In this document: in pieces, positions 16,331 through 50,422 of the stretch
How positions within the stretch are numbered: position 1 is the first letter of the stretch
Layout of the letters: the number at the start of each line of letters is the position of its first letter
Source: an uncultured Frankiaceae bacterium
Lineage (GTDB): Bacteria; Actinomycetota; Actinomycetes; BP-191
DNA: 64,000 nt
Reading direction: 5' to 3'
Assembly (NCBI GenBank): GCA_964651395.1
Contig: CAZYXZ010000003.1
Span: 52,227 to 116,226, forward strand
Program-made: the position numbers and the translations under genes
The notes under the pieces: model-generated
Seen by the model: the letters and a program-made list of their open reading frames with translations, nothing else
Database searches by the model: none
Told to the model about the DNA's origin: nothing

Positions 16331-16333
16331 GGA

Positions 16334-21423: not shown

Positions 21424-21540
21424 GTGGTCATCCTTCCGGACCCGGGTCGTGAGTCCGCGCGGGAGCAACGGGCCACGGTGACCAGGTCCCGCTGCGCCTG
21501 ATGAAGTGGCTTCGCCAGGCGCTGTCTCGCTGGTAGCTGA

Positions 21541-33091: not shown

Positions 33092-34149
33092 GACGTTCGC
33101 CCGAACACAGCCCTACCTACGCCGGCGTTCAACCGCGCCCGCAGCCCCTGACCCTCTGAGACGCGGCGAGTCATGTCCACCAGATCCGCGATTTCTGGTC
33201 GCGTCATGATGTCCGGCCGTTGCTCGAAGGCAGGCTCCCTCGTGATCCAGGTGGGGCCGATGATCGGCGGGCCGAGCGGAAGGTGCAGACGGCCGTTCTG
33301 AATCAGGTGCTCGGTCGCGTGGAGCGGAGCGACAGGCCCTCTGAAGGTGGTGCGGATTCGCTGCATCGAGCACCCGTTCGCCGGCAGCCACTCCTCGATC
33401 CGTTCGGCGAGGGCGACATAGCGCCTGGGGGGATCCGCCCACTGGTCGAGGGCTCGCAGGTTGAAAGCACGCTGTGCCGTCATGGGGTGGCGGACCTCGT
33501 ACGTCCAGCCCACGGACTCTGCGAAGCGTGCCGTCAGCTCCCACTGCAGCAGCACGTCGAGCGGCGGCCGCTCGTAACTGGTGACGTCGAGCAGAACCCT
33601 CTCGCCGGCGTCGGTGAACACCAGCAGATCCGGGTCGTGCCGCAGGTCCAGGCTGCCGTGCCGCCAAGACAGCCGGACCATCTGGGTCACGAGTGCTCGG
33701 TCGGGCCTGCCGCGGAGCGCATCCCACATGTGCTCGAGCTCGTTCTGGCTCGCGCCGGCGACATGGAACGGCACCCGCCGCTTGATCAACTGGAACCTGA
33801 TCTGATTCGTGCGGCCCTTGTAGTTCGCGGCTCGGCGGACCTCAGCCAACCGAAGTGGATCGATGGCCGCGAACTCCGAGGGAGTGAGCCGCGTCTGCTT
33901 GCCTTCGTGCTGGTCCGTGGCGTCGAGCAGTGCCAGACAGGAGCAGCTTTCGGCCAGCGAGTCCAGCGTCGCGTCATCGACCAGAGCGTCGAAAACGGCC
34001 CGCACACGCTCATCCCGCCCGATCTGCAGGCGGGGGATGTCGTCGACGACGTAGACGCTGCGGGTGCGGCGTCGCTGCGGCCGCGGCTGCCTGCGCGTGG
34101 TCGCTGACTCCGTCACGCGGGAGAGCAGGACGCGCACAGGCACCGACAT
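33088..34149 (-). CDS. tnsA: TnsA-like endonuclease subunit (putative)
   Basis: First gene of the ATGA-coupled operon. It has restriction-endonuclease-like motifs (NELEHMW ... DPDLLVFTDAGERVLLDVT) resembling the TnsA E...D...K region, but the canonical Lys position is not evident. Confidence 0.5.
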   Translation of the reverse strand: MSVPVRVLLSRVTESATTRRQPRPQRRRTRSVYVVDDIPRLQIGRDERVRAVFDALVDDATLDSLAESCSCLALLDATDQHEGKQTRLTPSEFAAIDPLRLAEVRRAANYKGRTNQIRFQLIKRRVPFHVAGASQNELEHMWDALRGRPDRALVTQMVRLSWRHGSLDLRHDPDLLVFTDAGERVLLDVTSYERPPLDVLLQWELTARFAESVGWTYEVRHPMTAQRAFNLRALDQWADPPRRYVALAERIEEWLPANGCSMQRIRTTFRGPVAPLHATEHLIQNGRLHLPLGPPIIGPTWITREPAFEQRPDIMTRPEIADLVDMTRRVSEGQGLRARLNAGVGRAVFGRTS

Positions 34150-34823
34150 GGCGCGTCGGGCGGCTCGCTTCCTATGGGTTCGAGCGTCCAGGCGTCCAGG
34201 ACAACTGCCGCGGGGACCCTGCAGGGCTCGACGTCGGGCGCTCCTGGACGATCACTGCGCTGGTGGCCCGGCGTTGCTCTCTCGGCGCAGTCTGTGGACA
34301 AGGATGCGGGCGATGGCAGACTTCGCATAGCGGTACTCCCAGGACTCGGCTTGCTGGCTGACGTTTGAGGGGCGACCGCGAGTAGGGCCCGCGACGGCGG
34401 CAACTGTCGCGGGCCTTACGCATTGCTCTCGGCACATGTGGGCCGTCCTCGAACGAACTCGGCGCGCTGGCTGACTCAAGGCTTCAGCAACACGCCCCGT
34501 GGCGACGGCAACCGCCCACGGTGACGTTGACAGCCCACAGAACTCGGCCATCACGCTGCCACCAGACCTCTTGGCGCGGGAGCGTATTGCCGTCCGCCTC
34601 ATTACGCCAGTCCAACGTGGCCGATTTTTGCAACGCCAGGTGCGTCTCACGTCTCCGGAATTGTGCCTACAGTCCGGGAAGTGCTGCTGGGTGACAGCAC
34701 ATCTGTGCCGAATTTCGCGCGCATTTAGCGGTGCGCATGGACTGATATCGCTTTCTTGCCAAGGGATCTGACACGTAGCCTGGCAACTGCTTCCGGTGAC
34801 CTGTCAACGCTAGACTCGCCGCC

Positions 34824-35150
34824 ATGGGGCGCCAACGACCGCACGCAGCCGTCCCGCCGTGGGCGACCAGGGTGATCGGCGGAACCACGTTCTTGGCTCG
34901 ACCATGCGCCAATCCGGGTTGCCGGCGACCAGTCTTTTGGGACGGCGGACGGGGTCGGCCGAGCGAGTACTGCTCCCCTCAGGGCAACCCGATCGGCAAC
35001 TGTCGACTGGAACGACTGCGCCGGCGACGCGAGGTAACCGCCCGCATCGCCCACGTTCGACGGCAACTGAGCGAGGCTCGAAGTGGGACTGACCGCGACG
35101 AACTCGAGTCCGGTCTGCGCCAGCTGGAGTGGTTGCGCGGTGCGCTGTAG
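34824..35150 (+). CDS. Small Cys-containing (Zn-ribbon-like) hypothetical protein
   Basis: 108 aa, CANPGC...YCS...NC followed by a basic coiled region. It lies between tnsA and hsdM. An overlapping minus ORF 34725..35357 is equally possible, and both are uncertain. Confidence 0.25.
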   Translation: MGRQRPHAAVPPWATRVIGGTTFLARPCANPGCRRPVFWDGGRGRPSEYCSPQGNPIGNCRLERLRRRREVTARIAHVRRQLSEARSGTDRDELESGLRQLEWLRGAL

Positions 35151-35322
35151 CCGCAGAAGGCGGCCGCGCAGTCGTGAGAGCCGGTTCGGTAAGTCCAGGT
35201 GCGGAGGCGACTGCTGAGACCAGGCTCGCGCGGGCTGTCCGAGCGGCACCAGTACGGGCCACTCGTCCTTTCCGCAGAGCGGGCAGACTCCACTAGTACC
35301 CGCGACGACCAGGGGCCGCTCG

Positions 35323-36885
35323 ATGACCAAGCACAAGACCCGCGAAACGGTGGACATCTACAACATCGCCGATCGCCTATGGGCGACCGCCGACGAGCTA
35401 CGCGCCAACTCCCACCTGAAGGCCGCCGAGTACTCCGTGCCGGTTCTCGGCCTGATCTTTCTCAAGTTCGCCGACAGCAGGTTCGCCCAGGCCGAAGCCG
35501 AGTTGGCAGGGAGCAGCACCGGTCGTCGCGAGATCGGCAAGGCCAACTACCAAGCCAAGAGCGTCCTCTACCTGCCTGATGGGGCCCGGTTCGCCAACCT
35601 GCTCAACCTCAAAGAGGGCGACAACCTCGGCAAGGCGATCAACGACGCCATGTCGGCCATCGAGGCGGAGAACCCGTCGCTGAAAGGCGTCTTGCCACGG
35701 ACCTACCAAGCGCTGACCAACGACACATTGGTAAGCCTGCTTCGCTCCGTGAACTCCATCCTCGGCGACATCGAAGGCGACGCCTTCGGCAAGGTCTACG
35801 AGTACTTCCTCGGCAAGTTCGCAGTGGTCGAAGGTTCAAAGGGAGGCGAGTACTTCACGCCTACCCCGATCGTTCGCCTGATCGTCGAGATCATCGAACC
35901 GTTCAACGGCAAGATCCTCGACCCAGCATGTGGGTCAGGCGGCATGTTCGTTCAGAGCGCCCGCTTCGTGGAGGAACACCGCAACGGCAAGTCCGGTCGG
36001 CTCTCGATCTACGGCCAGGAGCGAGTGAACGAGACCATCCGGCTGTGCAAGATGAACCTCGCCGTGCATGGGCTTGAAGGCCAAGTGCGCCAGGCCAACA
36101 CTTACTACGACGATCCCTTCAAGTCTGTTGGTCAGTTCGACTACGTGATGGCTAACCCGCCCTTCAACGTCAACAAGATCGACAAGACCAAGCTTGAGGG
36201 CGACAAGCGATTCCGGCTCGGAGTGCCGAAGGCCGACAACGGCAACTACATCTGGATCCAGACCTTCTACTCGGCGCTGAACGAGAAGGGCCGCGCTGGG
36301 TTCGTCATGGCCAATTCAGCCGCTGATGCAGGCGGGAGCGAGTTGGCAATTCGCCAAAGGATGCTGGCGGAGAAGGCAGTGGATGTCGTTGTCTCGGTTG
36401 GACCGAACTTCTTCTACAGCGTGACGTTGCCGGTCACGCTGTGGTTCCTGGACCGGGGCAAGGCCACCGACGAGCGCGCGGAGAAAGTGCTGTTCATTGA
36501 CGCGCGCAGAGTCTTCCGCCAGATCGATCGTGCGCATCGCGACTGGACCCCCGACCAGATTGAGTTCTTGGCAAACATCGCCCGCATGTACCGAGGCGAG
36601 GAGCCAGAGTTGGTCCACGGATCAGCCTTGCTGTCTTCAGCGTTTCCGGACGGGAAGTACACCGACGTTCCGGGGCTTTGCGCAGTTGCGACCATTGAGC
36701 AGATCCAAGAGCAGGGTTGGAGCCTCAATCCCGGCCGCTATGTAGGCGTCGCAGAGGCGAAGCACGACGGAGTCGACTTCAAGACACGCTTGGCTGAGCT
36801 GACCAAAGAGTTGGACGAGCTGACCACCGAAGCTGCACAGCTCCAGTCAAGGATCGCAGCCAACGCCGCAGAGCTGCTGCGTTGA
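35323..36885 (+). CDS. hsdM: Type I restriction-modification system DNA methyltransferase subunit
   Basis: HsdM N-terminal domain ([34 protein letters not shown]), AdoMet motif [10 protein letters not shown] and catalytic NPPFN. Confidence 0.9.
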
Positions 36886-38117
36886 ACACGTCGTGGCCGG
36901 CGGTCCGACTCGCCAACGTGTGCGATCGGATCACGGTGGGTTGGGTTGGCCCGATGGTCGACCAGTATGTGGACGCCGGAGTTCCCTTCCTGCGGTCGCA
37001 AAACATCACGCCGTTCCGCATTGCCACAGAGAACATCAAGTTCATCACGCCGGAATTCCACGAGCGCATCCGCAAGTCAGCGCTTCGCCCCGGAGACGTC
37101 GCAGTTGTCCGCACGGGTTACCCCGGCACAGCCGCGGTAGTGCCTGCGTCACTAGGCGAGGCCAACTGCGCCGACCTCGTCGTGATCACCCCTGGCCCGC
37201 AGCTCGACTCGCGGTTCCTCGCAGCAATCTTCAACTCGTCCTGGGGGGTTGCCTCTGTCGGAGGCAATCTCGTTGGCTCTGCTCAGCAGCACTTCAATGT
37301 CGGGGCAGCCAAACACATGGAAGTGCGACTTCCCCCGATAACGATCCAGCAGAAGATCGCTGGTGTCCTCACGGCCTACGACGCCCTCATCGACAACAAC
37401 ATGCGTCGGATCAAGCTCTTCGAGGAGTTGGCGCAGCGCATCTACCGTGAATGGTTCGTTGAGTTTCGCTATCCCGAGCACCGAACGGTTCCGCTCGTCG
37501 ACACGGAACTTGGCTGTGCGCCGCAAGGCTGGTCGGTAGAGCCATTGTTCGCAGTAGCTGACGTTGCCTTCGGGTTTGCATTCAAGTCCACGGGATTCAA
37601 CGAAGAGCACGGAACGCCGGTGGTGCGAATCCGTGACATCCCTAATGGAGAGAGCCGGACGCTAACCACGGAGGACCCCGGTGATCAATATCGCATCAGG
37701 GACGGCGACATCCTCATCGGCATGGACGGCGACTTCCACATGGGCCGATGGTCAGCTGGTGAGGCGTGGCTCAACCAGCGGGTCACACGCGTTCGGCCAG
37801 CGACTCCGGGCCTCTCGACGTACTCCCTCTACATGGCCCTCGAGGATCCCATCGCAAGGTGGAACGAAGCAATCGTGGGAACGACGGTTGCTCACTTGGG
37901 CAAGCGCCACCTCGAGAGAATCAGCATCCTGATCCCGCCTGCACCGTTGCGAGAGGCAACGTCACGCCTGCTTGATCCCATCCTTTCCATGGAGATCACT
38001 CTTCGGAAAGCCAACCGCCAACTCCGAGCCAGCCGCGATCTCTTGCTGCCGCGCCTGATCGCAGGTGACCTCGAATTGGCAAAGCTCACTATCGACGTCG
38101 ACACGGATGCCTCGTGA
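36882..38117 (+). CDS. hsdS: Type I restriction-modification system specificity subunit
   Basis: Two target-recognition domains separated by conserved coiled repeats. It overlaps hsdM by 4 nt. Confidence 0.85.
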
Positions 38118-41100
38118 CTCCGTCAGGGCGGTACACCGAGGACCAACTCGTGGAGCAACCCGCCATCCAGCTGTTCGAGTCGCTGGGTTGGGAGGCGGTT
38201 AACGCGTACCACGAGACGCTTGGGCCGAACGGCACGTTAGGGAGGGACAACAAGTCTGAAGTCTTTCTGACGCGGCGCCTCCGCGCGGCGATAGAGCGAT
38301 TGAACCCAATGGCGCCGAGCGAGGCCGTGGAGCAGGCCGTCGCGGAACTCACCAAGGCTCGCACGGTCATGCACTACGCGAGGGCCAATGCAGAGATCCA
38401 TGGGTTGCTACGTGACCGTGTTGAGGTCTCCGTCCGACAGCCAGACGGGACCACCTTGCCCGAGCGGCTCATCGTCATCGACTGGGACAACCCCGAGAAC
38501 AACGACTTCCTGCTGGTCTCTCAGCTCTGGGTTCACTCGGACCTGTACCGCCGTCGAACGGATCTCGTCGGCTACGTCAACGGGATCCCGCTTGTTTTCA
38601 TCGAGTTAAAGGCGTCGCATCGCAGCCTCAAGCACGCATACGACGACAACCTTCGCGACTACCGCGACGCCATCCCAGAGCTATTCACTCCGAACGGGTT
38701 CATCGTCCTGTCCAACGGAGCAGACACGAAGGTCGGATCGATCACCGCCGGCTGGGAGTTCTTCTCCGAGTGGAAGAAGATCGACTCCGAAGGTGAACAG
38801 GGCTCGGTCTCGCTCGAGACCGTCATCCGGGGCATGTGCACCAAGGATCGCCTGCTCGACATCGTGGAGAACTTCATCGCCTACCAGGACCTGCCCGGTG
38901 GCTTCGTCAAGATCCTTGCCCGCAACCACCAGTACCTCGGCGTCAACAACGCCATGGCCCGCCTGGAGGAGCTCCGGCACGCAACGCCCGAGGAGCGCGG
39001 CAAACTCGGCGTCTTCTGGCACACCCAAGGCTCCGGCAAGACCATCTCGATGTTGTTCTTCTCGCAGAAGGTGCTACGCAAGCTCCCCGGCAACTGGTCG
39101 TTCGTCATCGTCACCGACCGCGACGACCTCGATGAGCAGGCCTATAAAGAGTTCTCCTACGCTGGGGCAATCGCCGAAAAGCACATGCGTGCAACGAGTT
39201 CCGAGCACCTTCGACAGCTGCTCGGCGAAGACCACCGCTACGTCTTCACGCTGATACACAAGTTCCGCACCGACAAGGGCGAGACACACCCGGTCATCTC
39301 AGACCGCGACGACGTCATCGTGATCACGGACGAAGCTCATCGCACTCAGTACGACACCCTGGCGCTCAACATGCGCAATGCGCTTCCGAATGCGAGCTTC
39401 CTCGGGTTCACCGGCACCCCGCTCATCGCGGGCGAGGAGCGGACGCGAGAGGTCTTCGGCGACTACGTCTCTGTCTACAACTTCGCCGCGTCCGCGGCTG
39501 ACAAGGCGACCGTCCCGTTGTACTTCGAGAACCGCATTCCCCAAGTCGCGATCGAGAACCCAAACTTCGCAGACGACCTCATGGCCATCGTCGAGGAGGC
39601 GGATCTCGATGACGACCAGGAGCGCAAGCTCGGCCGCCTCCTGGGCCAGCAATACGAGCTGATCACCCGGGATGACCGACTAGATGCCGTCGCTGGGGAC
39701 ATCGTCGACCACTTCCTCGGCCGGGGTTTCCCCGGCAAGGCTCTCGTCGTTTCCATCGACAAGATCACCGCGGTACGAACCTACGAGAAAGTGCAACGGT
39801 TCTGGGCAGAACGGTTGGAGCACAGCAAGCAGGCCATCGCGGGCGGAGGTCTCACGGAGGACGAACACGACCGGCTCGTCCGCGAGATCGTCTTCATGCG
39901 CAACACCGACATGGCTGTGGTCATCTCGCAGTCGCAGAACGAGATCTCGGATATGGCGGCGCGGGGGCTCGATATCAAGCCTCACCGCAAGCGCATGGTG
40001 GAAGAAAGCCTGGAAGACAGGTTCAAGGACGCGCAGGACCCGCTGCGAATAGCGTTCGTCTGCTCCATGTGGACCACGGGTTTTGACGTGCCATCTCTGT
40101 CCACCGTGTACCTGGACAAGCCGTTGCGCAACCACACGCTGATGCAGACGATCACACGCGCCAACCGGGTGTTCCCCGAGAAGAACAACGGACTGATCGT
40201 CGCCTACGTGGATGTGTTCAGCAACCTTCAGAAGGCTCTCGCCATCTACGCGATCGGGGGTAAGCCCGGCGATGTTCCCGTCGAGGAGAAGGGAGCCCTG
40301 GTCGACGCGCTGAGCGAGGCTGTCGGCGATCTCCGCGCATTCTGCGCCGCACGGGAGGTCGACCTCGACGCACTTGCCGGCCTAACAGGCTTCGAGTTGG
40401 TCGCGGAAGGCAAGCGAACCGTCGAACTGTTGATGGTCGACGACGACGAGAAGATCGCATTCCTCTCTCGCACCGCCCTCGTTGACCGGCTCTACAAGGC
40501 CATCCTGCCGGACACCCGCGCGAATCAGTTCAGCCGGCTTCGCGCAGTCTCCAAGTTCCTCGCCGACGGCATCGCTGCGTACACCGAGCGCCCGGACGTC
40601 GGCAGCGTCCTAGGGAGAATTCAGCAGCTCCTCGATGAGTCCGTCGCCGCTCAGGAGTACGTGATCCCACGGACCGACGCCGAGGCGTTGTTCGATCTCG
40701 GAGCTGTTGACTGGACGGGCCTTCAAGACGCCTTCAAGCAAGGCCGGCCCCGCACGGCGGCGCAACGGCTTCGCACCCTGCTCGCCGCCAGGATCACCGC
40801 TCTCGTTCGGCTCAACCCATCACGAGTAGACCTCGTCGAACGCTTCGAGAAGCTGGTCGCCAACTACAACGCCGGCAGCATCAACACCGAGACGTTCTTC
40901 CAAGAGCTACTGAGCTTCAGCGCATCGCTTTCCACCGAAGAGGCACGGGCGTTGTCCGAGAACCTCAACGAAGAGCAGCTCGCCATCTTCGACCTGCTCA
41001 TGCGCCCAGCACCCGACCTATCTGACGAGGAGCACGCGCAAGTGAAGCGCGTCGCCGAGGAACTGCTTGCAGTCCTGAAGCGCGACAAGATCGTGCTCGA

Positions 41101-41278
41101 CTGGCGCAAGGAGCAAGCAACCCGCGCCGCGGTGAGAGTCGCGGTCGAGGAAACCCTCGACCGGTTGCCGGAGAAGTTCACCCGGCAGCTCTACGCACAG
41201 AAGTGCGACGCGGTCTATCAGCATGTCTTCGACAGCTACTGGGACGACGGACACTCGATATACGAGCACGTCGCCTAG
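38114..41278 (+). CDS. hsdR: Type I restriction enzyme endonuclease/helicase subunit
   Basis: 1054 aa with an N-terminal PD-(D/E)xK region, the SF2 helicase motifs GSGKT and ITDEAHRTQ, and a C-terminal domain. It overlaps hsdS by 4 nt. Confidence 0.9.
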   Translation: MTPSGRYTEDQLVEQPAIQLFESLGWEAVNAYHETLGPNGTLGRDNKSEVFLTRRLRAAIERLNPMAPSEAVEQAVAELTKARTVMHYARANAEIHGLLRDRVEVSVRQPDGTTLPERLIVIDWDNPENNDFLLVSQLWVHSDLYRRRTDLVGYVNGIPLVFIELKASHRSLKHAYDDNLRDYRDAIPELFTPNGFIVLSNGADTKVGSITAGWEFFSEWKKIDSEGEQGSVSLETVIRGMCTKDRLLDIVENFIAYQDLPGGFVKILARNHQYLGVNNAMARLEELRHATPEERGKLGVFWHTQGSGKTISMLFFSQKVLRKLPGNWSFVIVTDRDDLDEQAYKEFSYAGAIAEKHMRATSSEHLRQLLGEDHRYVFTLIHKFRTDKGETHPVISDRDDVIVITDEAHRTQYDTLALNMRNALPNASFLGFTGTPLIAGEERTREVFGDYVSVYNFAASAADKATVPLYFENRIPQVAIENPNFADDLMAIVEEADLDDDQERKLGRLLGQQYELITRDDRLDAVAGDIVDHFLGRGFPGKALVVSIDKITAVRTYEKVQRFWAERLEHSKQAIAGGGLTEDEHDRLVREIVFMRNTDMAVVISQSQNEISDMAARGLDIKPHRKRMVEESLEDRFKDAQDPLRIAFVCSMWTTGFDVPSLSTVYLDKPLRNHTLMQTITRANRVFPEKNNGLIVAYVDVFSNLQKALAIYAIGGKPGDVPVEEKGALVDALSEAVGDLRAFCAAREVDLDALAGLTGFELVAEGKRTVELLMVDDDEKIAFLSRTALVDRLYKAILPDTRANQFSRLRAVSKFLADGIAAYTERPDVGSVLGRIQQLLDESVAAQEYVIPRTDAEALFDLGAVDWTGLQDAFKQGRPRTAAQRLRTLLAARITALVRLNPSRVDLVERFEKLVANYNAGSINTETFFQELLSFSASLSTEEARALSENLNEEQLAIFDLLMRPAPDLSDEEHAQVKRVAEELLAVLKRDKIVLDWRKEQATRAAVRVAVEETLDRLPEKFTRQLYAQKCDAVYQHVFDSYWDDGHSIYEHVA

Positions 41279-41399
41279 GGCGCAAACTGTCGTTGTCGAG
41301 CATCTGCTCGCCGCTACCTTCGCGCACTCGGCACCTGACGCCGCCCGTGGAGGACGATACGTGGCGCGATCTGCGATGAGAGGCATTGAGGATCTGCTC

Positions 41400-41858
41400 A
41401 TGACACGAGTGCTAGGCATCAACGTCGCGGGTTCGACGGCCTATCTCGCGCTCTGCGACGACGCGGAGATCACGAACGACAAGCCGGAGAAACTCGTCGC
41501 ACCCGATGGGCTGGCGGCTGACAGTGGCACGCTCGCATTTCTCGACGACATCGGCCGTGTGCTTGGTCAGCTCCGGGTTGAACGCGTTCGCGTCCTGGAC
41601 CCCGAGCCGACTTATTCGACCAGCGTCCAGAGTGTCGTCCCGAGGATCACGATCGAGACCCTGTTCCTGCTAGCCGCGTGGCAGCGAGGCCTCGACGCCG
41701 GCCGCATCAGTCGCGCCCGTATCCGGTCGCTGCTCGACCTGGGCCGATCGGGCTCGCTCAGCTCCTTGGCCGCGAGCGTGACCAAGCCCGTAGGCTCCTC
41801 GTGGACCGGCAAGCGCGATCTGGCGGCGCTGGCAGCGCTCGCCGGCGGGCGGGAGTGA
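41400..41858 (+). CDS. Hypothetical protein coupled to the Ser/Thr kinase (N-terminus faintly RNase-H/YqgF-like)
   Basis: GAGGA RBS and ATG 41400. The protein reads MTRVLGINVAGSTAYLALCDD.... Its stop is 2 nt before the kinase ATG, inside the kinase RBS (GGGAGTGAccATG). Confidence 0.45.
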   Translation: MTRVLGINVAGSTAYLALCDDAEITNDKPEKLVAPDGLAADSGTLAFLDDIGRVLGQLRVERVRVLDPEPTYSTSVQSVVPRITIETLFLLAAWQRGLDAGRISRARIRSLLDLGRSGSLSSLAASVTKPVGSSWTGKRDLAALAALAGGRE

Positions 41859-41860
41859 CC

Positions 41861-42967
41861 ATGGTGCTGCACGGCGAACGACTGGACCGGCCCACCTACA
41901 ACTTCCTGACGACCATCAACGAGGGCAACACTGGGATGGCGTACCTGGGCGTGCATGAGGTGTACGACCGCAAAGTCGTCCAAAAGGTCATCTCGCTGCT
42001 CGGGGTCGAGGACGCGATCGCGTTCAACGAGCCCCGCATGCTGAACGAGATGCGCCACCCACATCTCGTAGAGGTCTGGGAGGCCCAATGGGACCCGGAC
42101 AACAAGGCAGTCAAGGCGATCACATTCACCATGCCGTTCTACGAGGGCGGCAGCGTCAACCAGCAGCTCGCGACCGGCAGCCGGTTCAGCCTCGCCGAGG
42201 CGGTCAGCGTCACGCGCGGCACGCTCTCCGCGTTGCACTACCTCCACGTCGAGCGCGCCGTGCTGCACCGCGATATCAAGCCCGGCAACATCTTCCTCTC
42301 CGCAGACCGTCGTCACCCCTACCTCGGCGATCTGGGCAGCGCCGTCACCATGACCCCAGCCAGGGATGCAGAAGCGCGAAGCGGTACTCCGCTTTACCGC
42401 CCCCCGGAGAACCACCTCGGGCGGTACACCGTGCGCGGGGAGCTCTACGGACTCGGTATGACCCTGCGGGAGATGCTCCACGGGCCATACCCCTACGCCG
42501 ACTTCGACGACGCCACGATTGCCACTCGCCTGGACGCCGGCCGACGAGCCATCCCCGATCGCTTCTACGAGATCACGGCGCCGCAGGTTCCGGATGCACT
42601 AGCTCGACTCGCCCGCAGTCTCACCCATGCCGATCCGGCGCGACGGCCGGCGTCCGCCGCAGACGCTCTCAGGCGACTCGACAGCATCCGTTATCTGACG
42701 TGGCACGTCGTCCATGAGGACGCCGACAGGGTCGTGTGGGATGCCACGTGGTCTAACCAGCCCGCCAACCGGGCGAGGGTCTATCGCATTGAACTGACGC
42801 AGATTCGGCGCGGCCGCTACGCGGGACTCGTTCGTGCAGAGGCCCGCTGGCGCCCACCGGGCACCGCCGCCTGGCGTGGCATACGCGCCTTGGATGCCCG
42901 GCTTCGCTCGGACGATCGGGCGGCGCTACGGGGCGTCTTTTCAGCGGTCGAGCAAGCCGCGAGGTAA
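41861..42967 (+). CDS. Ser/Thr protein kinase (Hanks-type) with ~100-aa C-terminal extension
   Basis: Motifs: VVQKV (beta-3 Lys), catalytic loop HRDIKPGNIFL, LGDLGSA, GTPLYRPPE. Confidence 0.75.
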   Translation: MVLHGERLDRPTYNFLTTINEGNTGMAYLGVHEVYDRKVVQKVISLLGVEDAIAFNEPRMLNEMRHPHLVEVWEAQWDPDNKAVKAITFTMPFYEGGSVNQQLATGSRFSLAEAVSVTRGTLSALHYLHVERAVLHRDIKPGNIFLSADRRHPYLGDLGSAVTMTPARDAEARSGTPLYRPPENHLGRYTVRGELYGLGMTLREMLHGPYPYADFDDATIATRLDAGRRAIPDRFYEITAPQVPDALARLARSLTHADPARRPASAADALRRLDSIRYLTWHVVHEDADRVVWDATWSNQPANRARVYRIELTQIRRGRYAGLVRAEARWRPPGTAAWRGIRALDARLRSDDRAALRGVFSAVEQAAR

Positions 42968-43350
42968 CCGCTCACTTCGTCCACTGCTTGAACAACCGTC
43001 GGGTCCAGCCGTAGCACCGCACGCCTCGCCGCCGTCCGCGCACCCGCCGCAATTGCATACCCTGCAGTCAAGCCCGGGGCTTCCGTGACGAGCGAGCCCT
43101 CGGCCGCGAGCTCCCACAACGCGGGAGTAACCCCTCGAGCCCGACGCCCAACCTCGGCGTCCGGCTCGATCCGCAGCACTGGTAACCGAGCGTGAGACCA
43201 CGCCGCCCGGAACGCGTCGTCGCTGGCCACCCGGTCCATCAGCGTGCTGAGTCCGCGATGCAGCGGTGTGTGGTCGCGCGCGTCTAGCCAGCAGTCGTCG
43301 GCTGCTGCGAAGATCAGACGAAGCAGAAATGTCAGACCTGTATCAGACAT
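42817..43350 (-). CDS. Hypothetical protein
   Basis: ATG 43350 sits in an AT-rich divergent promoter region. The ~135-aa protein-like N-terminus is MSDTGLTFLLRLIFAAADDCWLDARDHTPLHRGL.... The C-terminal low-complexity tail overlaps the kinase 3' end by ~150 nt. Confidence 0.3.
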   Translation of the reverse strand: MSDTGLTFLLRLIFAAADDCWLDARDHTPLHRGLSTLMDRVASDDAFRAAWSHARLPVLRIEPDAEVGRRARGVTPALWELAAEGSLVTEAPGLTAGYAIAAGARTAARRAVLRLDPTVVQAVDEVSGYLAACSTAEKTPRSAARSSERSRASKARMPRQAAVPGGRQRASARTSPA

Positions 43351-43372
43351 ATGTTTATCGTAGGAGGCCGGT

Positions 43373-43702
43373 GTGACATCGGGAGTCGACGACACGTTGG
43401 ATCCCGGAGAACTCCTCTGCACATCACGCGACCGCCAGGTCGGGCTGCGGGTTCCTGTCGCCGTCAGCCAGCGCGTCGATGCACTCCTCGCCCGGGCCCG
43501 AGCGGCGGGCGAGCGGACGGACCGCAAGGAACTGATCACGGCCTTGTTGGCGGAGACAGATCTCTCCGGCGACCAACTGGGCGACTTGCTGCGGCGGTAT
43601 CGACGCATGACTGTCGCGCACGCCCTTCTGGACCAGAGCGCTGATGGCTCCGTTGTGAGACTCGCGCGAGCTCGGCCCGGGCCGCGCCCGCGTGCCTCCT
43701 GA
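43373..43702 (+). CDS. Small hypothetical protein (possible DNA-binding/regulatory)
   Basis: GTG start 7 nt after a TAGGAGG RBS; 109 aa, charged and helical (RKELITALLAETDLSGDQLGDLLRRYRR). Confidence 0.4.
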   Translation: MTSGVDDTLDPGELLCTSRDRQVGLRVPVAVSQRVDALLARARAAGERTDRKELITALLAETDLSGDQLGDLLRRYRRMTVAHALLDQSADGSVVRLARARPGPRPRAS

Positions 43703-43912
43703 CGCAGTAGCGGGGATGGCCCGTCATCACCGCAAGACTCAGCACGGCCATGACGAGTACTCCGGCCCAGTAGAGCCACGCGTTGCGTCCGCCGCGCTGA
43801 GGCGGATCGCTTGTGGCTCGATGCCCCGCCCATCGACAGGAACCCCGCTCACGGCGTCACCTTTCCACGAACGCGTCGGCGCGACATTGCGCGACAGCCC
43901 GGATCGACAGCG

Positions 43913-45085
43913 TCACGGAAGGCTCCAAAGCGGTTCGTAAGGTCCGGTCTTTCCCAACCAGTTCATCAATCGGAGAGGACCAACCGCGTTAGCCCACCAG
44001 CCGATGGCGACTGCCAGCTCAACTGGGGTCGCCAAGTACAGGTCTATGCAGTCGATGTCGTTCCGGTCCGAGAGCTCCGTCAGGGTGCTGCCAATCTGTG
44101 CAGCCCAAGCCGCGCAAGTGTTTGCGTCTTGAACTGCCGTTCTCGCGGTCCCTTTCGGGGGCTTGAGCGTGAGCCGTTCACGGTATTTGTCGCCGGCCCG
44201 CACCCGTGCAGTGATCCCGGCGTCGACGTCGCGACTCACTGCGACCCCCAACGCCGCCGCTCGGGCATCGATCGGACCGGCCGGGAAGGCTTCCCGCACA
44301 AGAGGCTCGACGGCATCGGGCCTACGGATCGTGTGGAACTCCTCCTCTCCCCGTGGCATGCGAATGGTGTAGCCGGTTGGTTCGGCGAACGCGTACCCAA
44401 TGGCTGCAGCAATGGGCAGGTGCGACTTGATGGCCAGTTGGAGGGTCGACGGCCCGTATCGGGCCTTCAGCAATCCGGCCACAGTTGCGAGGGCTTCCTT
44501 CAGATCCGCACGCGTGGCTTCGTCGATCGCACCTGAGCTGAATCGATGGCGCCAATCGACACTGAGGACAGCGGTGTCTCGCATGTCTGCCGTGTCGTCG
44601 TAGGTGACGAGGCGCATCGACGCCGGCAGGTTCTCGCTGTAGGCCCGCGCAATGAGTGCCTCTGCCACACGCGCTGCGACGGCGCGCGCCGTCACAGTCG
44701 GATCAGAGCCTGGCTGAACGACGTGGCCGTTCTGCTCGCCCAGTTCGAATCCTGTCGCCTCGCGCAGGCGATCGCTGCCTTCGCTCGGCGTCATGTCATC
44801 GAACACCGGGATGACGAGCAGGCCGTGGCCGGACCGCGCCGCGGCGATAGCTGGGAGCTCGACAGTCGCGACGTACTCGGACGCCAACAGCCTCGCATCG
44901 ACCCACACAATCGCCGCCCTGCAGGTGGCGAGGTCCGCAAGCACGAACTCGGTCGTCCCTGCTCCTACCGTTAGGCTCTCGACGTCGCGCCATGGCGTGA
45001 CTCCATGTTCAGAGAGTGCCTCGACAAGAAGGCGTCGTTCGTCCCGACTACCCGAGTAGCTGATGAACGTTCGGTTCACGCGCAA
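43913..45085 (-). CDS. TIR-domain effector with C-terminal putative SAVED-like sensor domain (CBASS Cap-type effector)
   Basis: The N-terminus FISYSGSRDERRLLVEALSEHGVTPWRD... is a typical TIR fold with a WxxxE-like segment (SEYVATVEL). The ~250-aa C-terminal domain is putative SAVED. The TTG start overlaps the upstream gene's stop by 10 nt. Confidence 0.65.
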   Translation of the reverse strand: MRVNRTFISYSGSRDERRLLVEALSEHGVTPWRDVESLTVGAGTTEFVLADLATCRAAIVWVDARLLASEYVATVELPAIAAARSGHGLLVIPVFDDMTPSEGSDRLREATGFELGEQNGHVVQPGSDPTVTARAVAARVAEALIARAYSENLPASMRLVTYDDTADMRDTAVLSVDWRHRFSSGAIDEATRADLKEALATVAGLLKARYGPSTLQLAIKSHLPIAAAIGYAFAEPTGYTIRMPRGEEEFHTIRRPDAVEPLVREAFPAGPIDARAAALGVAVSRDVDAGITARVRAGDKYRERLTLKPPKGTARTAVQDANTCAAWAAQIGSTLTELSDRNDIDCIDLYLATPVELAVAIGWWANAVGPLRLMNWLGKTGPYEPLWSLP

Positions 45086-47142
45086 GCCTCCGGGGATGCA
45101 GCGGGCAGGTCGCCGGCCTCGCAGATGTCAGCCGGGATCAGCTGCCCTTCGGTGACTACGTGCCCACGAACGAGTCTTGTGTCCGCGTGCACGATCACAA
45201 GCACCGGTTCGTCGGTGCCCGACTCCTCGGCGAGCGCAAGCATGCTGGCGACGTCGAGGTGGCTCGGACCGCTGGGCTCCGGGCCTGTGTGGGAGTGCCA
45301 CTCACCGAGATAGCCCAGACGCTCGTCCGCGTCGTGAAACGGTTCCACGGTGCGCGGAACGCTGTGCGCGGCGATCCTGAAGCTCTGGGGAGCAGCACCG
45401 GGATCGGAGACCTCGACTGCGGCTGTCACAACTGGTCTGGCATCGATGAGCGCGCCGACAAGGACCCCGCCGGTCTCGTTGGGCGCAGCGGCACTGGCCG
45501 CGGACCGCATACTCGCCAGCGCGCTCTCCACCACGTCGATCGTCCTCGTCATGTCCGTCCGACGCAGGCGCCCCACTCTGTGGAACGGGACGGGTCCCGA
45601 ACGAAGTACCTCGATCACCTCGTCGGGCTGCTCATTGCGGCCGACAAGGAAGTCGACGACCACCTCGGAAGCTAGTGCGGCTGCATGCACGACTGCGATC
45701 GGAGGCGAGTTGTGGACCAGCGCTAGGCAACCCGTCTCCGAGCCGACGTATTCGACCTCCTCCTCTAACGGGGTGATTTCGGGATACGCGTCGAGGTGCG
45801 GGCGCCGGATGAACAGAGTGTCCGAAGGCAGCGCTTGTCGGCGTACTCGCGCAACGGTCCCTCCCCGAAACAGCGCGGCCGAGACCAACGGCCTCTGCTG
45901 GGCGGCCGCGACCTGTCCGGCCAGCTGAGACAGACCCACGAAACCGGTCGCTTCGACAGTCACATCGACGTCCGCGAGCAGTTCGCGCAGCCCGTCAATC
46001 GACCACTTGATGCCGTAGTCGTCCTCCGCTGGTACTTCGACGCGGACCCACGGGTATTGCTCCAGGTCCGCCTGCAGGGCGTGGGTCTTCAACGTCGCCG
46101 CGGGAGTGCCCGGCGCGGCAGCATGGCGGATCAGGTTGGCTGGCCAGAGCCGGTCCGAGTCCACAAGGCGCAGCGTGCCCACGCCGGCACGGGCGAGGAG
46201 CTCGGCGACGTGCGACCCGACGGCACCGACGCCGAGGATCGCGACCCGTTTCCCCTGCAGTGTCGCCGCGTCGGGTCCGGCCCGCAGCAGCAGCTCGTCC
46301 GGGCCGTTTGGCCGTAGCGCTACGAGGGCGGTTTCCCGCGCGCCGTCAGCGCCGCGGACCGAGAGAAGCATCGTCGCCACGAGCCCGGCGTTGTTGCGCC
46401 AGATGAGGCCGAACATGACGACAGCGCGATCGCGAAGGTCCTTGTCGAGTCGTTCGCGTTGCCGATCGGTCAGCAGTGACCGGAACTCATCGAGGTTGCG
46501 TGGTGGCCCTGAGACGTTTTCGCGCAAGAACCATCGGCCGCGGACCTGGCCGTAGTTCACTCCGCCGGGCAGCGGGCTGCCCGCTGTGTACGCGCCCGGG
46601 CGCAGGTCGTAGACAGCTCCTGGACTGGGGCGCCCGTCCGCCGATACCGCATCCGCGAACTGGAACTCACCGTGCTGACCATCGGCGGTCTCGCCGGACA
46701 GCAGCCCCTCCAGATCGACGAGTCCGGCAACCATCGGCATCGGCTGCTGCCAGTAGATCTCGGGGTTGCGCGCATTCTCCGAACGAGCAAATCCGAGATC
46801 AGCGTCCTCGACCCACTCTGCGATCCGCGCACTCAACCCGTCGAGAGTGGTCCACCGTTGGCTCGCATCCTCCGCCTGCCAGATGCACAGGCGTTCTTGG
46901 TCGGCGTGCCAGTTTGAGATCCCCGGGACGATGAGCAGTGGCGGAAGGTATGGCCACGAGACCCTCAGACGGATGCCCATGCGCTCCGCGGTCGTGTACC
47001 CAGCGGAGATAAGGGCGGGATCCGTGGGGCCCGTCCAGGTCCAATCGTCTTCGCGTACGTAGCCGGCCCGCTCGAGTTCACCGATGAAGGATCGGAGGCT
47101 GTCGGGGTCTGCAGCGGAGTCGAACGGCGGGTCAGCGACCAC
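45076..47142 (-). CDS. E2-like / E1 (ThiF/MoeB Rossmann) / JAB (JAMM) deubiquitinase-like fusion protein (Cap2+Cap3-type CBASS accessory)
   Basis: The N-terminus is E2-like (WHADQERLCIW, candidate catalytic Cys). The middle is a ThiF Rossmann domain (RVAILGVGAVGSHVAELLARAGVGTLRLVDSDRL). The C-terminus carries JAMM-type GEWHSHTGPEPSGPSHLD. The GTG start at 47142 overlaps the CD-NTase stop. The longer ORF N-terminal extension (to 47562) is low-complexity and is rejected. Confidence 0.7.
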   Translation of the reverse strand: MVADPPFDSAADPDSLRSFIGELERAGYVREDDWTWTGPTDPALISAGYTTAERMGIRLRVSWPYLPPLLIVPGISNWHADQERLCIWQAEDASQRWTTLDGLSARIAEWVEDADLGFARSENARNPEIYWQQPMPMVAGLVDLEGLLSGETADGQHGEFQFADAVSADGRPSPGAVYDLRPGAYTAGSPLPGGVNYGQVRGRWFLRENVSGPPRNLDEFRSLLTDRQRERLDKDLRDRAVVMFGLIWRNNAGLVATMLLSVRGADGARETALVALRPNGPDELLLRAGPDAATLQGKRVAILGVGAVGSHVAELLARAGVGTLRLVDSDRLWPANLIRHAAAPGTPAATLKTHALQADLEQYPWVRVEVPAEDDYGIKWSIDGLRELLADVDVTVEATGFVGLSQLAGQVAAAQQRPLVSAALFRGGTVARVRRQALPSDTLFIRRPHLDAYPEITPLEEEVEYVGSETGCLALVHNSPPIAVVHAAALASEVVVDFLVGRNEQPDEVIEVLRSGPVPFHRVGRLRRTDMTRTIDVVESALASMRSAASAAAPNETGGVLVGALIDARPVVTAAVEVSDPGAAPQSFRIAAHSVPRTVEPFHDADERLGYLGEWHSHTGPEPSGPSHLDVASMLALAEESGTDEPVLVIVHADTRLVRGHVVTEGQLIPADICEAGDLPAASPEACA

Positions 47143-48256
47143 CGAATCCTCGCTCTGCGCTCCCGCCCACGGCCAGATTGGCCGCTGCGGCGCCCATCGT
47201 GGCGCCCGTGCCACGGCAACCAGGCGGGAGTGGGAAGACCTGCGTGTCCCGGCCGTTGCCTCCGAAGACCGCACGCCATTCATGTGCCGCCTGGCATTGC
47301 GAGTCCGCGGTGACGGCGCTCCTCGCTCGTCTTGCCAGCATCGCGAATGTCTCCGCAGCGACTTGCGATTCGGCTTGCGTTGGCGCCGGCTGGTAGGGCA
47401 CGTCGAGAACTGGGTCGCGGATCGGCTCGCTCGAAGCCAGGCGGGACGCCAAGAACACCAACGCAGACTCTGCGATATCAGCCCAGCTCGCTCCAACGAT
47501 CGCACCCGTTCGGAAACCCTCGTGTAGAGCCATCTCGTAGTAGAGCGCGCCTGGCTTTGCATCGGGCAAGTGCGCGGACTTGATCTGCCGGACCATCCTC
47601 ACGACGCGAACGAATCCACCGATGCCGTCGATCTGCGGATCCCGGTTGCGCTCGTGAGTGAGGTCCGTGAGTGCAACTGGGTTGGTGAGACGCCAACGTC
47701 CGCTGCGCGCCACTACATCTGTTCGGGGATCGCGCTGCACCTCGGGGATTCCGTAGTGCTTCCCCCACTTGACCGCAGGCACGACGTCCACCGAGAACTC
47801 GAACGCCAGCTCCGGTAGCCGCTGAATCACCGACTCCGCGCGGGTTGCCTCCCATTCGTAGACCTGTGCCGCGCTTCTCAGTGATGCCACGCTCGGCGTT
47901 CGAGTGCGACTGAAGGCGATCTTGAACGACCGCGGTTGCCTTGTGAGTCGTGATTGCGCAGCGAACGGGTCCAAGGCTCGGCCGAACATCTCGTAGGTTT
48001 CGTCGGCAGTGATCGACTCCGTGTTCTCTGAGGACAGCCGCCCGAAGACGTCGACATCCTTGCCCGGCCACGTGGATACCTTGCGCCCGTAGCTGCCGAT
48101 GAGGACGTCTTCCAGGCCGTGCCCGAGCAGCTCGGTGCTGGATCGCAGGACCTGCCGCACCTCTTGATGCGCCGCGATCGCGATCAGGGCTCTGTCCCCC
48201 AGCCGGATCCGCTGCTGCATGACCGTGAATTGAGGGTTCAGCTCGAACCTCGCCAT
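47132..48256 (-). CDS. cGAS/DncV-like nucleotidyltransferase (CD-NTase, SMODS family)
   Basis: Polymerase-beta-type motif IGSYGRKVSTWPGKDVDVFGRL (GS...DxD). Start is placed at ATG 48256 (MARFELNPQF...). Confidence 0.75.
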   Translation of the reverse strand: MARFELNPQFTVMQQRIRLGDRALIAIAAHQEVRQVLRSSTELLGHGLEDVLIGSYGRKVSTWPGKDVDVFGRLSSENTESITADETYEMFGRALDPFAAQSRLTRQPRSFKIAFSRTRTPSVASLRSAAQVYEWEATRAESVIQRLPELAFEFSVDVVPAVKWGKHYGIPEVQRDPRTDVVARSGRWRLTNPVALTDLTHERNRDPQIDGIGGFVRVVRMVRQIKSAHLPDAKPGALYYEMALHEGFRTGAIVGASWADIAESALVFLASRLASSEPIRDPVLDVPYQPAPTQAESQVAAETFAMLARRARSAVTADSQCQAAHEWRAVFGGNGRDTQVFPLPPGCRGTGATMGAAAANLAVGGSAERGFGGR

Positions 48257-48427
48257 CTGCGGTCCAATCGATGCGCTGTCGTGGGGTCTACACGGCCCTT
48301 GCGGTCCCATCAGAGATATCACTCGGGTGTGACAACTTGGCCCGGTGTGGGGCATGCCTGTGGACGACCGGGGACAACGGATGGCTAGGGGTCGGACTCC
48401 GCTTCCGCACGGTCATGGTGATCAGGT

Positions 48428-48495
48428 CGTGCGCAGAAGTTTGATCACGCGCTGATCAGATAGCTCTGCAATTGATCACTGGAATTGCCACCTAC
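48428..48495. repeat. Related motif copy GCGCAGAAGTTTGATCACGCGC plus TCTGCAATTGATCACTGGAATTGC palindrome at the right island edge
   Basis: Similar to AGAAGTTGATCTTGCGCGC (19918) and TCTGCAATTGCGCAG (19797). It lies in the lower-GC spacer between the CD-NTase start and the dnaB stop. Confidence 0.4.
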
Positions 48496-48574
48496 AATTC
48501 GCCTCGGAACGCCCGCGATTCGCCGAAGTCGCCCCGTGACGCGGGAATTTGCCCCTAGGGTGCTGTGTCAGCAT

Positions 48575-50422
48575 CTAGGTCGTAGGACTCATGTCGACGA
48601 AGCGGGAGTAGTGACCCTGGAAGGCGACGGTCACGGTGTTGGTCGGGCCGTTGCGGTGCTTGGCCACGATGAAGTCGGCCTCGCCGGCGCGCGCCGACTC
48701 CCGCTCGAATGCGTCCTCGCGGTACAGCAGGATCACGACGTCTGCGTCCTGCTCGAGACTGCCTGACTCTCTCAAGTCCGAGAGCTGCGGCTTCTTGTCG
48801 GAGCGCTGCTCAGGGGAACGGTTGAGCTGGCTGATCGCAACGACCGGGACGTCGAGCTCCTTGGCCAGCAGCTTCATCGACCGGGAGATCTCGCTGACCT
48901 CCTGCTGGCGGTTCTCGACGCGCTTCGGTGACGTCATCAGCTGCATGTAGTCGACGACGACGAGCTGGAGGTCGTGACGCTGCTTGAGCCGCCGCGCCTT
49001 CGCGCGGATCTCCATCATCGTGAGGTTCGGCGAGTCGTCGATGAACAGCGGCGCGTTGGCCACCTCGCCCATCCGCCTCGCGAGCCGGCCCCAGTCCTCC
49101 TCGCTCATCCGACCGGTGCGCATGCTCTGCAGGTGCACGCGCGCCTCGGCGGACAGCAGACGCATGGTGATCTCGAGCTTGCTCATCTCCAGCGAGAAGA
49201 TGACCGCCGGCAGCTGGTGCTTGATCGCCGCCGACCGCGCGATGTCGAGACCGAGCGTCGAGTTGTGCGTGGGGATCTTCGTGGGCCCGGCGAGGAACAG
49301 GTGGTCGGCGGCATCGACCTGCACGCACCGCACGGGCACGCTGGGCACCCGCCGGGCTCCCGTGACGAAGACCTCGCTGTCCCCCTCGCCGATCGCATGG
49401 TTCGGCGCGCCCGCGACGCGCAGCGTCGCGGCGATCTCGACCGTCGTGACCACGGCGGCAGCGGTGAAGGGTTCGGCTCGTGCGCCGACCGTGACCAACG
49501 CGCGGGCGCGTCGCCGAGTGTGCGTCGTCGTCAGCCACTGGTGCTGCGCGTCGGCGACGATCGTCGCGCCGTCGGAGAAGGTCAGCTCGAAGCACGCGCG
49601 AAGGTGCATGACCTCCGTCGCGGCCACCACCCGCGTCGGCTGACCTTCTGAGCCGAGCAGGAAGTCACCGACCTGTACCTCACCCATCGTGGTCCAGCCG
49701 GTGGGCGTGGGCAGCGGAGTGTCGAGGGCCAGCGCCTTACCCACCGCCGGGCGCGCGGCGAGGATGACGAGGTTGCCAGGGTGCAGGCCGTTGGTGAGCT
49801 TGTCGAGCTCGATGAAGCCGGTCGGTACGCCGGTCATGATGCCGTCGCGCGACTCGATCGACTCGATCTCGTGCAGGGTCGGCTGGAGCAGGTCCTCGAG
49901 GCGGATGTAGTCCTCGCTGGCCCGCCGCTCGGTCACATCGAAGATGGCCTGTTGCGCGCGGTCGACGATGTCGTCGACGTCCTGCCCGCGCCCGGCGAAG
50001 CCGAGCTGCACGATGCGCGTGCCGGCCTCGACCAGCCGGCGCAGGATCGCCTGCTCGGCCACGATCTTCGCGTAGTAGCCCGCGCTCGCCGCAGTCACGA
50101 CCGTCGAGACCAGGGTGTGCAGGTACGGCGCGCCGCCGGCCCGCGCGAGGTCGCCGCGCCGGTTGAGCTCGGCCATCACGGTCACCGCGTCGGCGGGGTC
50201 GCCGCGCGCGTAGAGGTCGAGCGCGGCCTCGTAGATGGTCTGGTGCGCCGGCCGGTAGAAGTCGGTCGGCTTGAGTACCTCGAGGACGTCGCTGATCGCG
50301 TCCTTCGACAGCAGCATCCCGCCGAGCACACCCTGTTCCGCCTCGATGTTCTGAGGGGGCGTGCGCTCGAACTCCGAGGGCGGCGCAGACGACGGGCCCG
50401 GCGCGTTGAGGTCGATGCTCAC
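48575..50422 (-). CDS. dnaB: Replicative DNA helicase DnaB, interrupted by a 158-aa mini-intein in the P-loop
   Basis: N-terminal DnaB domain, and Walker A AARPAVGK | intein | STLGLDIA. Intein block A is ALALDTPLPTPTGW, block B is LTTTHT, and the terminal blocks end ...HLFLAGPTKIPTHN with Ser at the +1 position. RecA-like C-terminal motifs are intact. Confidence 0.9.
   Translation of the reverse strand: MSIDLNAPGPSSAPPSEFERTPPQNIEAEQGVLGGMLLSKDAISDVLEVLKPTDFYRPAHQTIYEAALDLYARGDPADAVTVMAELNRRGDLARAGGAPYLHTLVSTVVTAASAGYYAKIVAEQAILRRLVEAGTRIVQLGFAGRGQDVDDIVDRAQQAIFDVTERRASEDYIRLEDLLQPTLHEIESIESRDGIMTGVPTGFIELDKLTNGLHPGNLVILAARPAVGKALALDTPLPTPTGWTTMGEVQVGDFLLGSEGQPTRVVAATEVMHLRACFELTFSDGATIVADAQHQWLTTTHTRRRARALVTVGARAEPFTAAAVVTTVEIAATLRVAGAPNHAIGEGDSEVFVTGARRVPSVPVRCVQVDAADHLFLAGPTKIPTHNSTLGLDIARSAAIKHQLPAVIFSLEMSKLEITMRLLSAEARVHLQSMRTGRMSEEDWGRLARRMGEVANAPLFIDDSPNLTMMEIRAKARRLKQRHDLQLVVVDYMQLMTSPKRVENRQQEVSEISRSMKLLAKELDVPVVAISQLNRSPEQRSDKKPQLSDLRESGSLEQDADVVILLYREDAFERESARAGEADFIVAKHRNGPTNTVTVAFQGHYSRFVDMSPTT

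Follow-up and report, generated by a model that had tools for sequence, protein, structure and literature searches.

Class 3 inteins have as their prototype the intein of mycobacteriophage Bethlehem (MP-Be; Tori et al. 2010, PMC2807308), and are defined by a non-nucleophilic residue 1, a Trp at B:12, a Cys at F:4, a Thr at G:5, and Ser or Thr at the +1 position (PMC2807308; PMC3196547). The block F Cys is absolutely required in this class (PMC2807308; restated in PMC3196547); for example, the Cys F:4 mutant of MP-Be, C320A, is dead (PMC2807308). A phage origin has been proposed for class 3 inteins (PMC3196547).

Within this class, two mycobacterial inteins located in the replicative helicase DnaB are known to splice experimentally, i.e. 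those of Mycobacterium smegmatis and M. chimaera (PMC6195587; PMC7360933; PMC7664689), and both have crystal structures (2018 and 2020) along with in vivo splicing data. In M. smegmatis DnaBi1 (6BS8, apo form; 6OWN, zinc-bound), the intein occupies the P-loop, uses Cys118 as the nucleophile and Ser at +1, and is abolished in its splicing by C118A (PMC6195587; PMC7360933). Its Cys48 is also required for splicing, and H2O2 blocks the reaction reversibly via a Cys48-Cys118 disulfide (PMC6195587; PMC7360933). Zinc blocks splicing as well, and is bound by the Cys118 sulfur, the Val119 backbone, and the Tyr128 hydroxyl; the original paper called Cys48 nonconserved (PMC6195587; PMC7360933). M. chimaera DnaB1 (6RIX/6RIY, PMC7664689) is found at the same site, with Ala1 and a Cys-His-Thr catalytic set.

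We find that, in a 64,000-nucleotide stretch of DNA from an uncultured Frankiaceae bacterium (hereafter the window), the gene for the chromosomal replicative helicase very probably carries a class 3 mini-intein that is able to splice. It occupies the DnaB-b (P-loop) site and is an ortholog of both M. smegmatis DnaBi1 and M. chimaera DnaB1. Listed below are the features of this locus.

48575..50422, minus strand: dnaB precursor coding sequence, 615 aa plus stop, chromosomal replicative helicase (ORF, Pfam, TIGR00665, and neighbours)
49736..50422, minus strand: N-extein, aa 1-229, ending in the first half of Walker A, …AARPAVGK
49262..49735, minus strand: predicted class 3 mini-intein, 158 aa, precursor aa 230-387 (PDB homology, residues, and relatives)
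49733..49735, minus strand: Ala1 codon GCG, the non-nucleophilic first residue
49592..49594, minus strand: Cys48 codon, counterpart of M. smegmatis DnaBi1 Cys48
49529..49570, minus strand: block B, residues 56-69, GATIVADAQHQWLT, with Asp62, His65 (B:10), and Trp67 (B:12) (alignment to 6BS8 residues 56-69)
49361..49528, minus strand: linker, residues 70-125, remnant of the segment preceding the first LAGLIDADG motif of full-length relatives, with the endonuclease core deleted (alignment)
49286..49336, minus strand: block F, residues 134-150, PVRCVQVDAADHLFLAG, aligned to M. smegmatis C118 and Y128
49325..49327, minus strand: Cys137 codon (F:4, WCT residue, catalytic by homology)
49295..49297, minus strand: Phe147 codon (block F)
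49259..49282, minus strand: block G, residues 152-158, TKIPTHN (Thr156, His157, Asn158), with the P-loop Ser+1
48575..49261, minus strand: C-extein, aa 388-615 plus stop (228 aa), starting STLGLDIA

The host gene is one continuous ORF with a GTG start, and Pfam analysis of the precursor recovers both the DnaB N-terminal (3e-35) and C-terminal (1e-100) domains, the latter being interrupted by the insert. The precursor also passes the NCBIfam DnaB equivalog model TIGR00665, with 542.9 bits vs a cut-off of 385. Upstream of dnaB and on the same strand are rplI (L9), ssb (SSB), and rpsF (S6), and the order rpsF-ssb-rpsR-rplI…dnaB is the canonical actinobacterial gene neighbourhood. Because the precursor passes TIGR00665 and resides in the rpsF-ssb-rplI context, the dnaB of the window is the housekeeping replicative helicase rather than a prophage paralog.

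Removal of residues 230-387 in silico leaves 457 aa, which align over the entire length with the DnaB of G. stearothermophilus (2R6A, E = 2e-133). At the junction this alignment is free of gaps, with AARPAVGKSTLGLDIA against AARPSVGKTAFALNIA, and the insert is thus positioned exactly between the Walker A Lys and Ser/Thr. The original prediction had proposed a 158-aa DnaB mini-intein within the Walker A P-loop at 49262-49735, and the exact coordinates, the flanks, and the PDB homology all agree with it. A second intein is absent from this DnaB, based on the 2R6A alignment of the spliced product and on the 228-aa length of the C-extein. By contrast, M. smegmatis DnaB harbors a second intein in its C-extein (DnaBi2, H4-motif), and among the best 80 related loci at least 31 have an extra C-extein insert of 330-425 aa (5 loci were not scorable).

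Directly downstream of dnaB, between approximately 16 and 48.5 kb of the window, lies a stretch of lower GC content (~60-67% vs 70-72% elsewhere) that is without ORFs of high GC3. This stretch includes a type II CBASS-like operon (CD-NTase, E1-E2/JAB fusion, and TIR-SAVED effector), a type I restriction-modification system, Tn7-like TniB and TniQ genes, and several large ORFs with no family matches.

Read on the minus strand, 49262..49735 translates into the 158-aa insert, ALALDTPLPTPTGW…KIPTHN, which splits Walker A between Gly-Lys and Ser-Thr (AARPAVGK/ALAL…PTHN/STLGL) and is flanked by …ILAARPAVGK and STLGLDIARS…. Pfam searches of the 158 aa matched no family, intein models included, and NCBIfam returned just a weak, sub-threshold match to an intein-containing radical SAM model, so the identification of the insert rests on PDB homology and on its relatives. 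This also affects annotation, as the precursor has 615 aa while the mature DnaB would have 457, and the insert is not flagged by Pfam. Well above chance expectation, phmmer searches of the insert against the PDB retrieve 6BS8/6OWN (M. smegmatis DnaB1, E = 7e-41) and M. chimaera DnaB1 (6RIX, 3e-39; 6RIY, 2e-38), with the gp41-1 intein matched more weakly; the DnaB1 intein chains in the PDB all start with ALAL, the same as the insert. Homology to DnaBi1, together with a site between GK and S/T of a bona fide DnaB, points to the DnaB-b (P-loop) allele.

Residue 1 of the insert is Ala (codon GCG) rather than the Cys, Ser, or Thr found at this position in class 1 inteins, while the insert ends in His-Asn (CAC AAC) and is followed by Ser (TCG) at +1. 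These residues had been read correctly in the original prediction, which also recognised that intein blocks are present. However, it took LTTTHT as block B and overlooked the WCT triplet, on which the choice of mechanism turns. LTTTHT is the start of the linker, and the structure-anchored alignment gives DAQHQW, with GATIVADAQHQWLT as the true block B. This block contains IVADAQHQW, in which DxxH takes the place of the usual TxxH, and a DxxH block B has also been described for M. smegmatis DnaBi1 (PMC6195587; PMC7360933). The WCT triplet is complete in the insert: Trp67 (B:12) lies in His65-Gln66-Trp67, aligned to M. smegmatis His65/Trp67, Cys137 (F:4) lies in VPVRCVQV, aligned to M. smegmatis Cys118, and Thr156 (G:5) is followed by the terminal His157-Asn158. 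The best sequence and fold matches of the insert are all class 3 inteins. Tori and Perler are said to have broadened the class 3 definition in 2011 and to have defined a monophyletic class 3 clade.

Comparison with the known systems reveals how closely the insert resembles its mycobacterial counterparts. M. smegmatis DnaBi1 shares the host protein, the site after GK of the P-loop, and Ser+1, and is likewise a mini-intein without an endonuclease. Residues 1-76 and 122-158 of the insert align with DnaBi1, with identical numbering for Ala1, Cys48, Asp62, His65, and Trp67, while Cys137, Thr156, His157, and Asn158 align to Cys118, Thr137, His138, and Asn139; the block F motif VPVRCV and the block G motif PTHN are common to both. 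The two differ in length (158 vs 139 aa), as the linker in the window is longer, unrelated-looking, and retains a pre-LAGLIDADG remnant, and they differ in having Phe147 vs Tyr128, which in 6OWN supplies one of three zinc ligands through its hydroxyl. M. chimaera DnaB1 aligns over its full length (residues 1-158 of the insert to 1-145) at approximately 50% identity, although its linker differs in sequence and length. Based on these comparisons, the insert is an ordinary member of the known class 3 family, with orthologs at 50-60% identity.

Similarities are also found beyond mycobacterial DnaB. MP-Be and the phage class 3 inteins, located in terminase and helicase P-loops (PMC5050341), share with the insert the WCT triplet, a non-nucleophilic residue 1, Ser or Thr at +1, and a P-loop ATPase as host, and MP-Be also has a Phe at the aromatic block F position. 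MP-Be differs from the insert, however, in having Pro1, 341 aa, and an active LAGLIDADG endonuclease, and the phage class 3 inteins are mobile whereas the intein of the window is not.

An AlphaFold2 model of the insert, built with 29 homologs, has a moderate mean pLDDT of 72.5, and its last 10 residues are below 50 because many of the homolog fragments lack them. Foldseek searches of this model against the PDB return 6bs8, 6riy, and 6rix as best matches (E ~1e-10), with low TM values of 0.4-0.5 (0.43-0.52 for 6BS8). Next in rank are other HINT domains, namely gp41-1, further inteins, and hedgehog autoprocessing domains. The predicted model supports the HINT fold indicated by homology to 6BS8/6RIX and adds little beyond the sequence match.

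Relatives of the insert were obtained by scanning one genome per species, with at least 382 genomes encoding a relative. Genome loci were used since a first homology search gave mostly short, fragmentary, or frameshifted gene calls. The intein was extracted from each of the best 80 loci, and counts of 81 refer to these 80 plus the window. All of the best 80 loci are from Actinomycetota, including Nocardioides, Mycobacterium, Mycolicibacterium, Nocardia, Promicromonospora, Nonomuraea, Saccharopolyspora, Knoellia, Frankia, and Kineococcus, as well as many MAGs. The junction GK/AL…THN/S is present in 80/80 extracted loci (the best 80 of at least 382 genomes), and Ala1, Leu2, Asp62, His65, Trp67, Cys137, Thr156, His157, and Asn158 are found in all 81 sequences. 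Ala1 is therefore the rule for the DnaB-b intein family. The original prediction had regarded it as unusual, yet it is invariant and is part of the class 3 definition; the apparent anomaly of an intein that lacks an N-terminal nucleophile although its host is an essential helicase was accounted for in 2010 by the class 3 mechanism.

Other positions are more variable among these sequences. Cys48 is present in 79 of 81, and all 80 relatives have Tyr at position 147, where the window alone has Phe. The insert also has Lys153 where the relatives from the best 80 loci mostly have Met, and Ala142 where they mostly have Asn. Phe147 and the conserved redox partner Cys48 are the only individual features of the insert. 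In 78 loci, identity to the window in the intein does not correlate with identity in the extein (Spearman -0.07, P = 0.55; extein identity reaches 75% at best), a result that reveals nothing on vertical vs horizontal inheritance. At 0.89, the GC3 of the insert approaches the 0.93-0.95 of the exteins, which argues against a recent acquisition and is consistent with long residence.

The original prediction attributed Ala1 either to a class 2 or 3 route or to impaired splicing, and of these only the class 3 route is retained, given that the WCT triplet is complete, residue +1 is Ser, and no catalytic residue has been lost. A decayed intein that no longer splices, with DnaB function provided by another copy or with the precursor being tolerated, as in Arth_1007 of Arthrobacter FB24, appears very unlikely. 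Inactive class 3 inteins do exist (PMC3196547), the Tyr-to-Phe substitution at position 147 is unique to this insert, and, as our scope is the 64-kb window, a second dnaB copy elsewhere in the genome could relax selection. However, Arth_1007 is without Cys F:4 and His B:10 and has an extein of 66 aa only (PMC3196547), whereas the catalytic residues in the window are all intact, and its exteins together make up a complete DnaB, one that passes the equivalog model and is encoded in the canonical rpsF-ssb-rplI-dnaB neighbourhood. Strong coding bias is also maintained along the gene (GC3 of 0.89-0.95), and a Phe at the aromatic block F position is native to the active MP-Be (PMC2807308). A class 2 intein of the KlbA type, in which the +1 nucleophile attacks the N-terminal junction directly with no block F branch, is highly improbable. 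Ala1 is common to class 2 inteins, including that of Methanococcus jannaschii KlbA, where, as in the window, the linear thioester cannot form. Yet class 2 is known only from archaeal KlbA, with Cys+1 and Asp F:4 (PMC2807308; PMC3196547), and the M. jannaschii intein has no WCT triplet and a different first step, whereas the insert has Ser+1, Cys F:4, the complete triplet, a DnaB host, and nearest relatives by sequence and fold that are experimentally class 3.

The two remaining explanations dispense with an Ala1 intein altogether. That the insert is a non-excised insertion or linker domain of DnaB, rather than a splicing element, is hardly credible: it splits the invariant GK/S-T of Walker A, adopts a HINT fold, ends in His-Asn, and has homologs among inteins with demonstrated splicing. 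The original prediction had named relatives lacking conservation of His-Asn and of the +1 Ser as a sign of such a linker, but H157 and N158 are found in 81/81 sequences, and Ser+1 in 80/80 of the best 80 loci. A sequencing error at the first codon was also raised there. That the insert is an ordinary class 1 intein whose true residue 1, Cys or Ser, was lost to such an error or to misassembly has a probability that is practically negligible. Ala1 is rare among inteins overall and nothing else favours an error, while the residue is present in all 81 orthologs (the best 80 loci plus the window), which come from different assemblies, and in three crystallised proteins, and its pairing with the WCT triplet is precisely what the class 3 definition predicts.

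A splicing-competent class 3 mini-intein thus remains by far the most probable reading of the insert. Against this reading stand the moderate confidence and low TM values of the model, the absence of a match to the Pfam intein models, and the three residues of blocks F and G (Phe147, Lys153, and Ala142) that depart from the family majority. The residues involved are seen directly in the sequence, and from the orthologs we infer by homology the following splicing chemistry. The Cys137 thiol would attack the Lys(-1)-Ala1 bond with assistance from His65 and Asp62, which Trp67 and Thr156 would hold in position, and the N-extein would then be held on Cys137 as a block F thioester branch. From there, it would pass to the hydroxyl of Ser+1, i.e. 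the Walker A serine, after which Asn158 would cyclise with the help of His157 and free the intein. An O-to-N acyl shift would finally produce the native GK-ST peptide bond and restore the P-loop ARPAVGKST. Before splicing the ATP-binding loop is split, and the precursor should be without helicase activity; because of this split ATP site, helicase activity should need splicing.

The same homology bears on how splicing may be controlled. The insert retains Cys48, Cys137, and Val138, while Phe147 at the Tyr128 position lacks the hydroxyl that acts as a zinc ligand. As both Cys48 and Cys137 are kept, the intein may be reversibly inhibited by oxidants, in the manner of its M. smegmatis ortholog. 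Phe147 would itself be compatible with splicing because the Bethlehem intein naturally has Phe at the aromatic block F position and tolerates an exchange of Phe and Tyr there (PMC2807308).

The absence of a homing endonuclease, which the original prediction had also pointed out, holds for the 158 aa, where Pfam detects no such domain, LAGLIDADG included. Inteins from the best 80 loci and the window fall into two sizes, with 60 sequences of 130-182 aa, the window included, and 21 of 319-419 aa. The Pfam models LAGLIDADG_3 and Hom_end match long relatives (412-413-aa members of the 319-419-aa class) and have no match on the window. In the multiple alignment, the linker of the window (…VVTTVEIAATLRVAGAPNHAI…) pairs with the pre-LAGLIDADG segment of the long forms (…VKTTEEIAGTVRCGGAEQRLNHAV…LGAWLGDG…), approximately 255 aa of the 410-419-aa relatives are then absent, and the alignment resumes about 15 residues before block F. 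Because the linker aligns to the pre-LAGLIDADG segment and ~255 residues are missing after it, the mini-intein is a deletion derivative of a LAGLIDADG-bearing ancestor, now fixed and immobile.

Class 3 inteins related to the insert also occur in phage genomes, for the most part in terminase large subunits (387 records), with similarity over residues 1-67 only and identities of 50-62%. In Brevibacterium phage Rousseau, a DnaB-like helicase carries a full-length intein at the corresponding point of its P-loop (GAGK/ALALDTP…HQW…VRCIAV…IPTHN/TT). These phage relatives of the insert are in agreement with the proposed phage origin of class 3 inteins.

The intein of the window provides an additional natural sequence for class 3 intein engineering, and its natural Tyr-to-Phe variant at a zinc-ligand position is usable to separate zinc from redox inhibition of DnaB splicing. 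More tentatively, it is possible, although we consider it rather doubtful, that the Cys48-Cys(F:4) redox trap and the zinc switch, which have been described only in mycobacteria, represent an ancestral and widely conserved replication brake of Actinomycetota. The Phe147 intein would then be a natural variant of this brake, one that is redox-sensitive and less zinc-sensitive.

The GC content drops to 60-67% across window positions ~16000..48500, compared with 70-72% in the flanks, and this tract, which directly adjoins the 3' end of dnaB, contains no high-GC3 ORFs. No tRNA genes were found in the entire window. The tract looks like a defence and mobile island gained horizontally, and carries the following features (window coordinates):

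22433..26908, minus strand: 1491-aa ORF, no Pfam family at E<=1e-4
28675..34149, minus strand: Tn7-like gene set
28675..30057, minus strand: TniQ
30054..31088, minus strand: TniB/AAA_22
31085..33091, minus strand: 668-aa ORF
33088..34149, minus strand: 353-aa ORF
35323..41278, plus strand: complete type I restriction-modification system (hsdM, hsdS, hsdR)
42817..43833, minus strand: 338-aa ORF, no Pfam family at E<=1e-4
43913..48355, minus strand: type II CBASS-like operon, which directly follows dnaB on its downstream side
43913..45085, minus strand: TIR+SAVED effector of this operon
45076..47562, minus strand: ORF of the E1-E2 and JAB fusion (PDLC00847, E 2e-97; Pfam ThiF and Prok-JAB)
47132..48355, minus strand: CD-NTase (PADLOC Cyclase PDLC00810, E 4e-69), without a Pfam match

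In the CBASS-like operon, the HMM match of the E1-E2/JAB fusion begins only at residue 152 of the ORF, and the real start of the fusion gene is therefore probably near 47130. The two ORFs lying ahead of TniQ and TniB (668 and 353 aa) have no Pfam match; they are candidates for the transposase and for a TnsA-like protein. The restriction-modification genes encode N6_Mtase and HsdM_N in hsdM, Methylase_S in hsdS, and HSDR_N, SWI2_SNF2, and T1RH-like_C in hsdR.

Automatic domain annotation would overlook the class 3 mini-intein of dnaB itself (49262..49735), because no Pfam-A model detects it at E<=0.1; the protein that bears it has an NCBI entry without a protein name. Among the best 80 related loci, 21 P-loop-site inteins are full length (319–419 aa, with LAGLIDADG) and 59 are mini-inteins (130–182 aa), and their varied linker lengths imply that the endonuclease was deleted several times independently. 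Unlike at least 31 of these 80 loci, where a second insert of 330–425 aa is found in the C-extein (5 loci are unscorable), the window dnaB has no such insert. A full-length class 3 intein also follows the P-loop GK in the DnaB-like helicase of Brevibacterium phage Rousseau (OV696622.1, 30189..32483), with Ala1, the WCT triplet, Thr+1, and two LAGLIDADG motifs; this is a plausible vehicle for moving the family between phage and host helicases.

Two residues bear on how these inteins may be regulated. Position 147 (codon 49295..49297, minus strand) is Phe in the window intein only and Tyr in the other 80 of 81 DnaB-b class 3 inteins. It is equivalent to Tyr128 of M. smegmatis DnaBi1, whose hydroxyl is one of three zinc ligands in the Zn-bound structure (6OWN). 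The window intein may represent a naturally occurring variant whose sensitivity to zinc is altered. In the same M. smegmatis intein, Cys48 forms a disulfide with the catalytic Cys and was termed "non-conserved" in the DnaBi1 paper. We find Cys48 (codon 49592..49594, minus strand) in 79 of 81 DnaB-b inteins across Actinomycetota, i.e. the best 80 related loci and the window, which suggests that the redox trap is common to the whole DnaB-b intein family.
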